Shown here one piece after another: positions 2,802 to 51,092 of a DNA stretch of 64,000 bases. The stretch lies in assembly GCF_003334765.1 (NCBI RefSeq), contig NZ_QOWT01000006.1; one strand, written 5' to 3'. The stretch comes from Escherichia coli. GTDB taxonomy: Bacteria; Pseudomonadota; Gammaproteobacteria; Enterobacterales; Enterobacteriaceae. A program made the translations under genes and the position numbers. The number at the start of each line of letters is the position of its first letter. Positions within the stretch are counted from its first letter, which is position 1. The notes under the pieces were generated by a model. It was not told the DNA's origin. It ran no database searches and was given only the letters and a program-made list of their open reading frames with translations.

Positions 2802-3644
2802 TTAGCCCTTCACGCCACCGGCGGTCAAACCACTCTTAATAAAACGTTCCGAAAGCGCATACATAATCACCACCGGCAATGCGGTCACCAGTGAGGCCGC
2901 CATCATCCGTCCCCAGATGTAATCTGGCGTACTGAACAGCGCGTTCAGGCCCACCGGTAAGGTGAAATTGCTGGCGCTGGAGAGGAAAATCGACGCAAAC
3001 AGATAGTCGTTCCACGCCACCATAAAGCAGTAGACGAACACGGATATCAGCCCGGACATCGCCAACGGCACGGTGATGCGGAAGATAATTTGCAGACGGT
3101 TGAGGCCATCCATCATCGCCGCTTCTTCGATCTCATCGGGGATGGTGTCGAAGTAGCTTTTCAGCATAAACACGGCGGTGGGCAGAGTTTGCGTCACCAT
3201 GGTGATGATCAGCGCCATCTCAGTGTCGTAAATGCCAAGCGCGGTGATGATTTTGAAAAGCGGCACCACCAGCAAAATGCCAGAGAACATATACACCGTG
3301 TAAAAGCTGGCGTTGATGGTCATCCGACCTTTAAAGCGCAGGCGGGAAAGCGCGTAAGCCCCAAGAATGCCGAGGAATACCGCCACCACGGATGAAACCA
3401 CAGACACCACCAGACTGTTACGGAAGTAGTCGACAAACGGGAAAATCATCGGGTTAAAAATGTCGACGTAATGCTCCAGCGTCCACTGCTGCGGCAGCAG
3501 CGTAGGATGCAGTGAGATCGCCTCTTTCGCGCCCTTGAACGAGGTCATCAGCATCACAAAAAATGGAAACAGCGTGATGATGAGAAACAGCGCCAGCTCG
3601 CAGTAAAAACCGATGCGACTGAGTGTGCGTTTATTTGTTGCCAT
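2802..3644 (-). CDS. ycjP: ABC sugar transporter permease (MalG-like)
   Basis: 280-aa hydrophobic ORF; 14-bp overlap with ycjO stop. Confidence 0.92.
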   Translation of the reverse strand: MATNKRTLSRIGFYCELALFLIITLFPFFVMLMTSFKGAKEAISLHPTLLPQQWTLEHYVDIFNPMIFPFVDYFRNSLVVSVVSSVVAVFLGILGAYALSRLRFKGRMTINASFYTVYMFSGILLVVPLFKIITALGIYDTEMALIITMVTQTLPTAVFMLKSYFDTIPDEIEEAAMMDGLNRLQIIFRITVPLAMSGLISVFVYCFMVAWNDYLFASIFLSSASNFTLPVGLNALFSTPDYIWGRMMAASLVTALPVVIMYALSERFIKSGLTAGGVKG

Positions 3645-4512
3645 TGAGGTTCACCCGTTTCCTGGTCAGCAGAATGACAGCGAAAATAATGATGAAGAGC
3701 ACCACCGAGATCGCCGCCGCTTTTCCTAAATCATTAAAGGCAAAGGCGGTTTTGTAGAGATATACACCGAGAATATCGACCTTGGTCGTCAGCAAATAAA
3801 CATCCGCGAACATGTAGAACATCCAGATGGTGCGCAGTGTCACCACCGTCGCCAGGACCGGCATAATTGCGGGCAGCGTGACGATACGAAACCGTTGCCA
3901 GGCATTAGCGCCATCCATCTCTGCCGCTTCGTACAGCGATTTGTCGATGGTCTGCAAAATCGCCAGAAACGAGATAAAGGCATACGGGAAGTAGCGCCAG
4001 ATGGCGAACAGCACCACCAGCACAAAGCTACTGCCCGGATTATCGAACCACAGCGGTGCCTGCTCATAGAGATGCAGAAGATCGACGCCGAGGTAGTTAA
4101 CAATGCCGTAGCCGTTGTTGAACATGTATTTCCAGGCGAACACCAGCGAAATGGACGGCGTTACGTAGGAGAGGATCACCAGCGAACGCGCGGTTTTGCG
4201 CAGGCGGAACTCGCGGTTGAAAAACATCGCCACCGCCAGCCCGAGCACGGTGCTGCCCGCCACCACCAGCGCGGTATACCAGACCGTCATCCACAGCGAA
4301 TGCCAGAAGCCGGGATCGGAGAGGATACGCACATAGTTGCTCACCCCAACAAACGTTGACTCGATGTTGGGATTGAGCGGCAGACGTAAAAAACTGATTT
4401 CGATATTCGACACCATCGGCCACGCCACCAGACCGCCCAGCAGTAATAAGCTGGGCGCGAGAAGCAGCAGCGCAAAGGGCATATCGGAACGACCTGAAAA
4501 AAGCCTGTTCAT
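3631..4512 (-). CDS. ycjO: ABC sugar transporter permease (MalF-like)
   Basis: 293-aa hydrophobic ORF. Confidence 0.92.
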   Translation of the reverse strand: MNRLFSGRSDMPFALLLLAPSLLLLGGLVAWPMVSNIEISFLRLPLNPNIESTFVGVSNYVRILSDPGFWHSLWMTVWYTALVVAGSTVLGLAVAMFFNREFRLRKTARSLVILSYVTPSISLVFAWKYMFNNGYGIVNYLGVDLLHLYEQAPLWFDNPGSSFVLVVLFAIWRYFPYAFISFLAILQTIDKSLYEAAEMDGANAWQRFRIVTLPAIMPVLATVVTLRTIWMFYMFADVYLLTTKVDILGVYLYKTAFAFNDLGKAAAISVVLFIIIFAVILLTRKRVNLNGNK

Positions 4513-25932: not shown

Positions 25933-25977
25933 TCACCTCATTCTGACAAAAGATTAAATCTTGTCAGAATGAGGTGA
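25933..25977. repeat. 17-bp perfect inverted repeat (tcacctcattctgacaa / ttgtcagaatgaggtga) with 11-nt spacer
   Basis: Read directly from sequence; right arm overlaps the GTG start of ycjD. Confidence 0.8.
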
Positions 25978-33298: not shown

Positions 33299-33387
33299 CA
33301 ATCGTGCCTTCAGGTTTTCCTATTTGAGGATGCCCGGCGCGTCAGTATTTTTTTATTAAGTATTATAACGTTATAAGAATTACAGCG

Positions 33388-34137
33388 ATGAATTCCCGAC
33401 AACAAACTATTCTACAGATGGTCATTGACCAGGGTCAGGTTAGCGTAACCGATCTGGCAAAAGCCACTGGAGTTTCTGAAGTTACCATTCGCCAGGATCT
33501 CAACACACTCGAAAAACTGAGTTACCTCCGCCGTGCACATGGCTTTGCTGTTTCGCTTGATAGTGATGACGTCGAAACCCGTATGATGAGCAACTATACG
33601 CTGAAGCGTGAACTCGCCGAGTTTGCCGCGTCGCTGGTTCAACCGGGCGAAACCATCTTTATCGAAAATGGCAGCAGCAATGCCCTACTCGCCCGGACTC
33701 TGGGCGAGCAGAAGAAAAATGTCACTATCATCACGGTCAGCAGCTACATCGCGCATTTGCTGAAAGACGCGCCTTGTGAAGTTATTTTGCTCGGTGGCGT
33801 GTATCAGAAAAAAAGCGAAAGTATGGTTGGCCCTTTGACACGCCAGTGCATCCAACAGGTGCATTTCAGCAAAGCATTTATTGGTATTGATGGCTGGCAA
33901 CCTGAAACTGGATTTACCGGTCGCGATATGATGCGTACCGATGTGGTCAATGCCGTGCTGGAAAAAGAGTGCGAAGCGATAGTCCTGACTGACAGCTCGA
34001 AATTTGGTGCTGTACATTCATACTCCATCGGTCCCGTTGAGCGATTCAATCGCGTGATTACCGATTCGAAAATACGCGCCAGCGATCTGATGCATCTTGA
34101 GCACAGTAAACTCACCGTTCACGTCGTTGACATTTAA
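33388..34137 (+). CDS. yciT: DeoR-family transcriptional regulator
   Basis: 249-aa ORF with N-terminal HTH. Confidence 0.9.
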
Positions 34138-34153
34138 CCATTTCCCTTCTCTA

Positions 34154-34183
34154 CGGATGATTTGCAGTTTGGCAAATCATCCG
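34154..34183. other. 12-bp perfect palindrome (cggatgatttgc / gcaaatcatccg) downstream of yciT
   Basis: Read from sequence; no adjacent T run. Confidence 0.5.
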
Positions 34184-34405
34184 CTCTAAGATGATTCCTG
34201 GTTGATAATTAAGACTATTTACCTGTTATTAACACTCTCAAGATATAAAATTATTATCAGCGATATAACAGGAAGTCATTATCACCTGCGTGATATAACC
34301 CTGCGCGCGAGCAGATTTCACGGAATAATTTCACCAGGCTTATTCTTAGCTATTATAGTTATAGAGAGCTTACTTCCGTGAATCATAAATTCAGGAGAGA
34401 GTATT

Positions 34406-34624
34406 ATGTTTGTAACGAGCAAAAAAATGACCGCGGCTGTTCTGGCAATTACTTTGGCAATGTCTCTGAGTGCCTGTTCTAACTGGTCTAAACGGGACCG
34501 CAACACCGCAATCGGCGCGGGTGCAGGGGCATTAGGCGGTGCAGTACTGACCGATGGCAGTACGTTGGGTACATTAGGTGGTGCAGCTGTCGGTGGTGTT
34601 ATTGGTCACCAGGTCGGTAAATAA
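34406..34624 (+). CDS. osmB: osmotically inducible lipoprotein B
   Basis: 72-aa ORF MFVTSKKMTAAVLAITLAMSLSACSNWSKRDR... with lipobox and Gly-rich body. Confidence 0.93.
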   Translation: MFVTSKKMTAAVLAITLAMSLSACSNWSKRDRNTAIGAGAGALGGAVLTDGSTLGTLGGAAVGGVIGHQVGK

Positions 34625-34719
34625 TCGTAAATAAATGTCGATTATCGACTCGCAATTATAATACGCTTGATTCTGTTCAGTACGAAATAACTGAATAATA
34701 CGCACAGTAAAATATTCGA

Positions 34720-34746
34720 AAGCCACGGATATATCCGTGGCTTTTT
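34720..34746 (+). terminator. rho-independent terminator between osmB and yciH
   Basis: agccacggatatatccgtggc hairpin followed by ttttt. Confidence 0.65.
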
Positions 34747-38404: not shown

Positions 38405-38573
38405 GGCCTCTCCTTTTTGATAAGTCCCACAATCATAACTGAAAACGCCAGTTCCAGGAAAAATTGACAGATTTGTGCCATTCCGTGAACGATCGACGCG
38501 TCGTGATTAGGTGAACCCCTTCTCGTTATGGCAAAATAAGCCAATACAGAACCAGCATTATCTGGAGAATTTC

Positions 38574-39164
38574 ATGCAGCTTAAACGTGTGGCAGAAGCC
38601 AAACTGCCAACCCCATGGGGCGATTTCCTGATGGTGGGATTTGAAGAACTGGCAACCGGACACGATCATGTCGCGCTAGTCTATGGCGATATTTCCGGGC
38701 ATACCCCGGTACTTGCGCGCGTCCATTCCGAATGTCTGACCGGTGACGCCCTGTTCAGCTTGCGCTGCGATTGTGGCTTCCAGCTCGAAGCGGCATTGAC
38801 GCAAATTGCCGAGGAAGGCCGTGGTATTTTGCTGTATCACCGTCAGGAAGGTCGTAACATTGGTCTGCTGAATAAAATCCGCGCTTACGCACTGCAGGAT
38901 CAAGGTTACGATACCGTAGAGGCTAACCACCAGTTAGGCTTCGCCGCTGATGAGCGCGACTTCACTCTTTGCGCTGATATGTTCAAACTCCTTGGCGTCA
39001 ATGAAGTCCGCTTGTTAACCAATAACCCGAAAAAAGTCGAAATTCTGACCGAAGCAGGGATTAATATTGTTGAACGCGTACCATTGATTGTAGGTCGTAA
39101 CCCCAATAACGAACATTATCTCGATACCAAAGCCGAGAAAATGGGCCATTTGCTGAACAAATAA
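38574..39164 (+). CDS. ribA: GTP cyclohydrolase II
   Basis: ORF track 38511..39164; internal ATG start [40 protein letters not shown]... with SD ggaga (196 aa). Confidence 0.95.
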
Positions 39165-39185: not shown

Positions 39186-39222
39186 ATTTGCTTGCCGGAA
39201 GCAAAATAACCGGCAAGCAAAT
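39186..39222. terminator. bidirectional terminator-like inverted repeat between convergent ribA and acnA
   Basis: atttgcttgccgg ... ccggcaagcaaat, 13-bp arms. Confidence 0.6.
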
Positions 39223-50882: not shown

Positions 50883-51092
50883 AGAGCTTCCTTTTGGTGT
50901 CGCCTTCCCAGGCGTCTGATATGCTTTTGTGCAACAGTGAGTCAGAACTTACATCTGACTCACTGATAGTAAAGTCTGTTTGAACTCTTCAGGCCTTAAG
51001 TAAACGACTCGACGTTTATCGGCCTGGCTTTGAGGCGCAACATACTACACTATCTTTATGGTTAAAGCTTGTTTCGATTAACATCAGCTTAA

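Follow-up and report, generated by a model that had tools for sequence, protein, structure and literature searches.

A hairpin without a U-tract at the 3′ end of the Escherichia coli yciT mRNA

The yciT mRNA of Escherichia coli ends at a hairpin that is not followed by a U-tract. This end has been demonstrated by published experiments and is already on record, because two published maps put the 3′ end 4–8 nt past the stem. In the 64,000-nt stretch of E. coli DNA analyzed here (the window), the hairpin is encoded on the + strand by a perfect inverted repeat of 12 bp around a 6-nt loop (34154-34183). It is real and functional, yet ordinary, being one of a known class and having its own entries in published 3′-end tables, and none of the findings presented below will surprise a specialist. 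Their value lies in annotation, as the site marks the end of the yciT transcript and explains why terminator predictors that rely on U-tracts miss that end. In addition, the locus offers a small, clean case of selection on RNA structure, in which the position of a hairpin has been kept across the Enterobacteriaceae and its sequence replaced many times.

The hairpin and the mapped ends of the yciT transcript

The window is E. coli K-12-like, with the gene order pdeR-yciZ-yciT-osmB; all four genes lie on the minus strand in MG1655, and a K-12 coordinate is obtained by subtracting the window coordinate from 1377734. The 311 bases around the site are found with at least 80% coverage in 5,411 of 5,426 complete E. 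coli genomes, in which the flanking annotation is yciT and osmB, and this palindrome-bearing region occupies a median of one place per genome. From the yciT stop codon (TAA, 34135-34137), an untranslated spacer of 268 nt extends to osmB (Table 1).

Table 1. Coordinates of the hairpin and of the flanking features in the window
Feature	Position	Strand	Basis or remark
yciT CDS, 249 aa, DeoR-type regulator	33388-34137	+	ORF; carries the yciT annotation in K-12 MG1655 and other E. coli genomes
5′ stem arm CGGATGATTTGC	34154-34165	+	100% complementary to the 3′ arm
Loop AGTTTG	34166-34171	+	Between the stem arms
3′ stem arm GCAAATCATCCG	34172-34183	+	100% complementary to the 5′ arm
U-poor tail CUCUAAGA	34184-34191	+	Contains the mapped yciT mRNA 3′ ends; 2 U in 8 nt
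Untranslated yciT-osmB spacer past the hairpin, proposed Rho loading/termination zone	34184-34405	+	ORF positions
RcsB-box-like site TAAGATGATTCCTG of the osmB promoter region	34187-34200	.	1 mismatch to TN(G/A)GAN4TC(T/C)NA; aligns with Salmonella TAAGACTTTTCTGA
osmB CDS	34406-34624	+	ATG at 34406

The initial annotation had described a perfect 12-bp palindrome without a T run, and its arms, loop and spacer are as it stated: a spacer of 16 nt follows the yciT stop, and the 17th nt is the first base of the stem. Six of the twelve pairs are G-C, with G/C pairs at the base of the stem. The upstream flank, CCCTTCTCTA, contains no A-tract, and the sequence that follows the stem, CTCTAAGATG, has two T among its first 8 nt. 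The folding energy of the hairpin by itself is −18.1 kcal/mol. In a 111-nt context the fold reached z-scores of −4.8 (+ strand) and −5.2 (− strand), with none of 200 shuffles equally stable. Dinucleotide shuffling of the window yields, on average, 0.03 repeats with perfect 12-bp arms and a loop of 3–10 nt, and any such repeat is present in 2% of the shuffles, confirming that the palindrome is genuine and far beyond chance.

Within the 64-kb window, no second copy of the palindrome was found with up to 3 mismatches allowed, and no Rfam covariance model gave a match overlapping 34100-34250 at E values up to 10. As an intergenic palindrome after a gene, able to block 3′ exonucleases, the yciT hairpin resembles REP/BIME elements; however, these form a multi-copy family, whereas the yciT palindrome is single-copy and lacks the REP consensus. 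Membership in REP/BIME or in another repeat family was ruled out on the copy numbers per genome and in the window. A switch in which the 3′ arm would pair with a downstream GATGATT was likewise dropped, as this pairing is weak (−5.7 kcal/mol versus −18.1 kcal/mol for the hairpin) and restricted to Escherichia.

Two independent data sets locate the end of the transcript. In the Term-seq data of Adams et al. 2021 (PMC7815308, Supplementary file 1), a "primary" yciT 3′ end is listed at K-12 1343547 (−), which is window position 34187, 4 nt past the stem; the mean reads were 107,065 in LB at OD 0.4 and 37,489 in M63 at OD 0.4, and the end is missing from the LB OD 2.0 tab. TRS, applied to RNAtag-seq and term-seq by an independent laboratory with an independent method (PMC10687069), gave the yciT primary terminus as 1343543/1343544, that is, window 34190/34191 or +7/+8 from the stem. 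The R statistic of this terminus (1 minus local read-through) was 0.91–0.96, similar to fabI and rnb, and the TRS table lists the identical hairpin with −19.2 kcal/mol and a U count of 2. These published experiments show that steady-state read-through at the hairpin is low. The initial annotation had named 3′-end mapping as a check and the absence of 3′ ends as evidence against its proposal; both the published Term-seq and the RNAtag-seq data contain yciT 3′ ends at the site.

Hairpin position and stem sequence in the Enterobacteriaceae

We compared yciT orthologues from 80 species-level Enterobacteriaceae genomes, 79 of which provided usable loci. A hairpin of −10 kcal/mol or lower, beginning within 30 nt of the yciT stop, was present in 73 of the 79 species (median −14.7 kcal/mol), compared to 13 of 79 with shuffled sequence and 8 of 79 in an interval 120 nt further downstream, although the species are related and the counts do not represent independent events. 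The stems fall into at least ten visibly different sequence types, among them GATGATTTGC/GCAAATCATC in Escherichia, Citrobacter and Salmonella, GCGCCCG/CGGGCGC in Enterobacter and Lelliottia, GCCCGC/GCGGGC in Kosakonia and Phytobacter, and CCCGATGC/GCATCGGG in Kluyvera; Trabulsiella, Atlantibacter, Franconibacter, Pluralibacter and others each have a different stem of their own. Enterobacter, Kosakonia, Kluyvera and others retain YciT at 74–83% identity, yet carry unrelated hairpins at the same place, and most inspected loci of these genera also keep the downstream osmB promoter elements. Five or more T within the 8-nt tail were seen at only about 6 of the 79 loci, leaving ~92% without a U-tract, and the tails are CU-rich in many species. 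Because the hairpin is so widespread but its stem so diverse, the conserved feature is an RNA structure, a hairpin at one position that mostly lacks a U-tract, rather than a DNA sequence. The computations establish both the hairpin structure and the conservation of its position.

Within Escherichia, Citrobacter and Salmonella, 99.5% of the stem cells in the alignment are paired. The loop sequence varies among Escherichia species, and Citrobacter and Salmonella have one extra pair and a 4-nt loop. Each of the twelve one-sided stem changes gives a G-U pair on the + strand, which on the − strand would be an A-C mismatch; a single compensatory change, from C-G to U-A, was also seen. These pairing-preserving changes point to the sense RNA, albeit through few independent events, and covariation in this alignment did not exceed the shuffle control (141–152 of 500). 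The structural argument therefore rests on the replacement of hairpins across genera and on the mapped 3′ ends, and not on covariation.

Two sequences stood out during the comparison. In E. coli FMU073332 (NZ_CP017844.1, locus 3079-3930), the match to the window stops in the 3′ arm of the hairpin (34178) and is followed by IS1, and osmB is absent, as though a deletion associated with IS1 had started at the hairpin. The same hairpin and a YciT 100% identical to that of the window are present on JAEWQO010000093.1, a contig of 3.6 kb whose label reads "MAG: Actinomycetes bacterium"; almost certainly, this contig is E. coli contamination or was mis-binned into the MAG.

Origin of the yciT 3′ end

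We suggest that the mature yciT 3′ end is generated by Rho termination in the spacer and subsequent exonuclease trimming back to the hairpin, an account that we regard as somewhat probable and in which we infer both the Rho dependence and the trimming. The palindrome is the final stretch of the transcribed yciT mRNA, and its 12-bp stem-loop forms the mature 3′ end. RNA polymerase moving past yciT would continue into the untranslated spacer before osmB, where Rho would load on C/U-rich, G-poor RNA just beyond the hairpin and terminate transcription further downstream. 3′-to-5′ exonucleases (PNPase, RNase II) would trim the resulting heterogeneous ends to the base of the stem, leaving a tail of 4–8 nt; the hairpin would thereby fix a precise 3′ end and protect the yciT mRNA from decay. 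Together, hairpin and Rho would keep yciT transcription out of the Rcs/sigma-S-controlled osmB promoter region, such that this stress gene would be separated from its constitutively expressed upstream neighbour by the hairpin and, probably, by Rho.

Such ends have been described by Dar & Sorek 2018 (PMC6061677), who found Rho-dependent transcripts with precise steady-state 3′ ends just past stable stem-loops; such stem-loops have neither a U-tract nor an upstream A-tract, shield the RNA from PNPase and RNase II, and precede a mild C-over-G bias. In its features, the yciT hairpin matches this known class of end hairpins. It is a stable stem-loop soon after the stop codon, lacks a U-tract (2 U in 8 nt) as well as an upstream A-tract, and the dominant steady-state yciT 3′ ends, a few nt past the stem, lie where the class has them. 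A mild excess of C over G and a bicyclomycin-sensitive region, both downstream of the yciT hairpin, would agree with the class. The bias is slight in E. coli (16 C versus 13 G in the first 100 nt past the hairpin) and mild across the family, with C exceeding G downstream in 64 of 78 species (means 20.2 versus 16.0). The bicyclomycin-sensitive region comes from DirectRNA-seq with and without BCM, in which Adams et al. (PMC7815308, Supplementary file 2) called Rho termination at K-12 1343365 (−), that is, at window 34369, on the same strand and 182 nt downstream of the 3′ end. Reads upstream/downstream were 101/25 without BCM and 259/233 with BCM (Rho score 3.63, p = 9.7e-9), in a coarse call that compares 800-nt windows. 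Unlike in the Dar & Sorek class, this sole yciT Rho call is distant from the 3′ end and possibly confounded by the osmB promoter: its peak falls on the predicted start of the proximal osmB promoter (end of the −10 element at 34359), and BCM-induced osmB transcription could therefore mimic read-through. The yciT 3′ end carries no Rho score of its own, since it is located 219 nt from the osmB ATG and thus falls outside Supplementary file 3 of the same study (PMC7815308). A full-text literature search for osmB together with bicyclomycin found nothing.

An intrinsic terminator would likewise release RNA at +7/+8 from the stem, and the hairpin could be a weak, non-canonical intrinsic (Rho-independent) terminator that, perhaps helped by NusA/NusG, releases RNAP despite the U-poor tail. 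In stem length, loop size, energy and location right after a gene, it is indeed like canonical intrinsic terminators; the 12-bp stem is stable with G/C pairs at its base, the ends at +4 to +8 fall into the usual release window, the R statistic is high, and a few orthologous hairpins (Leclercia L040, Cedecea-like L069) have 5–6 T in their tails. However, the yciT hairpin lacks the U-tract that defines such terminators, and a consensus terminator scan (threshold of at least 5 T in 8 nt) did not call the site, in line with the earlier view that it is not a typical intrinsic terminator. Because ~92% of the orthologous hairpins share this lack, a U-tract does not seem to be what selection maintains. 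The BCM-sensitive region downstream also argues against intrinsic termination, as does, weakly, the absence of yciT from the supplements of the Term-seq-based TERMITe catalogue of intrinsic terminators, which may not cover E. coli. We consider an intrinsic terminator of this kind unlikely. Alternatively, the 3′ end might be a processing product of a longer yciT-osmB co-transcript, cut in the spacer by an endonuclease (RNase E) and trimmed by exonucleases to the hairpin, with no dedicated termination. The spacer is A/U-rich (71 of its first 100 nt are A or T), most non-terminator 3′ ends were attributed to processing by Adams et al. (PMC7815308), and the hairpin would act as an exonuclease barrier all the same. 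Against this notion, osmB RNA is low under conditions in which yciT is expressed (base means in M9 glucose of 31.6 and 357.7, respectively), a Rho-sensitive region has been reported within the spacer, and no evidence of a yciT-osmB co-transcript was found, rendering processing without termination quite improbable in our view.

The palindrome could, finally, act as double-stranded DNA, as an operator for a dimeric regulator (YciT, RcsB or another factor) that controls the osmB promoters. The initial annotation had offered a protein-binding site and an RNA-stability element side by side, and it is the latter that the 3′ ends 4–8 nt past the stem support. With the predicted distal osmB start ~80–110 bp downstream and an RcsB box 3 nt away, a perfect palindrome would suit an operator, as would a stem, GATGATTTG/CAAATCATC, that is near-invariant across Escherichia, Citrobacter and Salmonella; moreover, deletion of yciT raises osmB 3.6-fold, and a palindromic motif is reported for YciT. 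Yet none of the 49 YciT ChIP-exo sites published by Gao et al. 2021 (PMC8464067), and no site of the other factors tested, lies at yciT or osmB, so that the suggested binding of this DeoR-family protein is not borne out; the YciT list, which covers M9 glucose only, contains neither b1283, b1284 or osmB nor any coordinate of the form 13415xx, 13416xx or 13435xx. Within 34154-34183, no RcsB box was matched at up to 2 mismatches, and the best match adjoins the palindrome (Table 1), placing the RcsB site that had been sought within the palindrome next to it instead. In addition, Enterobacter, Kosakonia, Kluyvera and others keep the RcsB box along with YciT while their hairpins are unrelated, and the substitutions seen in the stem maintain RNA pairing via G-U, not DNA symmetry. 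A DNA operator at this position is thus extremely improbable.

Elements and hairpins in the vicinity

As the initial annotation had noted, the hairpin lies upstream of the osmB promoters; the predicted −35 element (TTAACA) begins at 34229. The RcsB box, TN(G/A)GAN4TC(T/C)NA, has been structurally defined, and the Salmonella osmB box TAAGACTTTTCTGA at −73 to −59 has been validated by EMSA (PMC7913699). Its E. coli counterpart TAAGATGATTCCTG begins 3 nt past the stem and adjoins the palindrome without overlap; its first base (34187) is also the Term-seq 3′ end. The palindrome shares with this box its place in the osmB upstream region and, in its 5′ arm, the GATGATT heptamer, but it does not itself fit the RcsB consensus. 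This sharing of GATGATT was seen only in Escherichia and in some Enterobacter-type loci with a different hairpin. A second role of the hairpin, as an operator for an accessory factor or as a means for yciT read-through to modulate the activation of osmB by RcsB, comes to mind because the hairpin ends 3 nt before the RcsB box, its 5′ arm repeats GATGATT and its stem is near-invariant in three genera, although we regard such a role, or that of a true U-tract-independent intrinsic terminator, as very improbable.

In published RNA-seq data of a yciT deletion, osmB is elevated (log2 +1.83, padj 0.011), with no YciT ChIP-exo site listed nearby; rof, encoding a Rho modulator, and ytfK, an RcsB target, are also up. 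A polar effect, an indirect Rcs effect and regulation by YciT are alternative explanations of the osmB rise. Directly upstream of the predicted osmB −35 element lies AATTAAGACTATTTACCTGT (34208-34227), which hardly varies among Escherichia, Citrobacter and Salmonella and can be discerned in most other genera; its conservation exceeds that of the end of the yciT CDS, and its left half resembles an RcsB half-site. AATTAAGACTATTTACCTGT is probably a key osmB promoter element. At the other end of yciT, a perfect 14-bp palindrome, TTATAACGTTATAA (33363-33376), is situated 12–25 nt upstream of the ATG, just past a terminator-like hairpin of yciZ with a T run (33329-33343 plus tail). Conservation of this palindrome is confined to Escherichia; Citrobacter has a different sequence centred on CGATATCG. 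The palindrome may serve yciT as a promoter or operator.

A canonical bidirectional intrinsic terminator is found between the convergent osmB and yciH genes, where a perfect palindromic hairpin, AAAGCCACGGATATATCCGTGGCTTT (34719-34744), is flanked by A and T runs; published termini lie on either side of it, at K-12 1343019 for yciH and 1342984 for osmB. The other perfect inverted repeats of at least 12 bp in the window are mostly hairpins at gene ends that lack U-tracts. A ribA-like ORF (38511-39164) is followed after 21 nt by the hairpin at 39186-39222, which has perfect 13-bp arms, an 11-nt loop and no U-tract and abuts a convergent ORF of 891 aa. For ribA, the published primary terminus is K-12 1338507 (window 39227), 5 nt past this stem, and the listed Rho regions include one at 1337991, antisense to acnA; the ribA hairpin is a second example of the class to which the yciT hairpin belongs. 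Two more perfect inverted repeats without T runs, one with 17-bp arms and an 11-nt loop 27 nt after a 268-aa ORF (25933-25977) and the other with 12-bp arms and a 7-nt loop between two minus-strand ORFs (50935-50965), are likely further gene-end hairpins of the U-less type.
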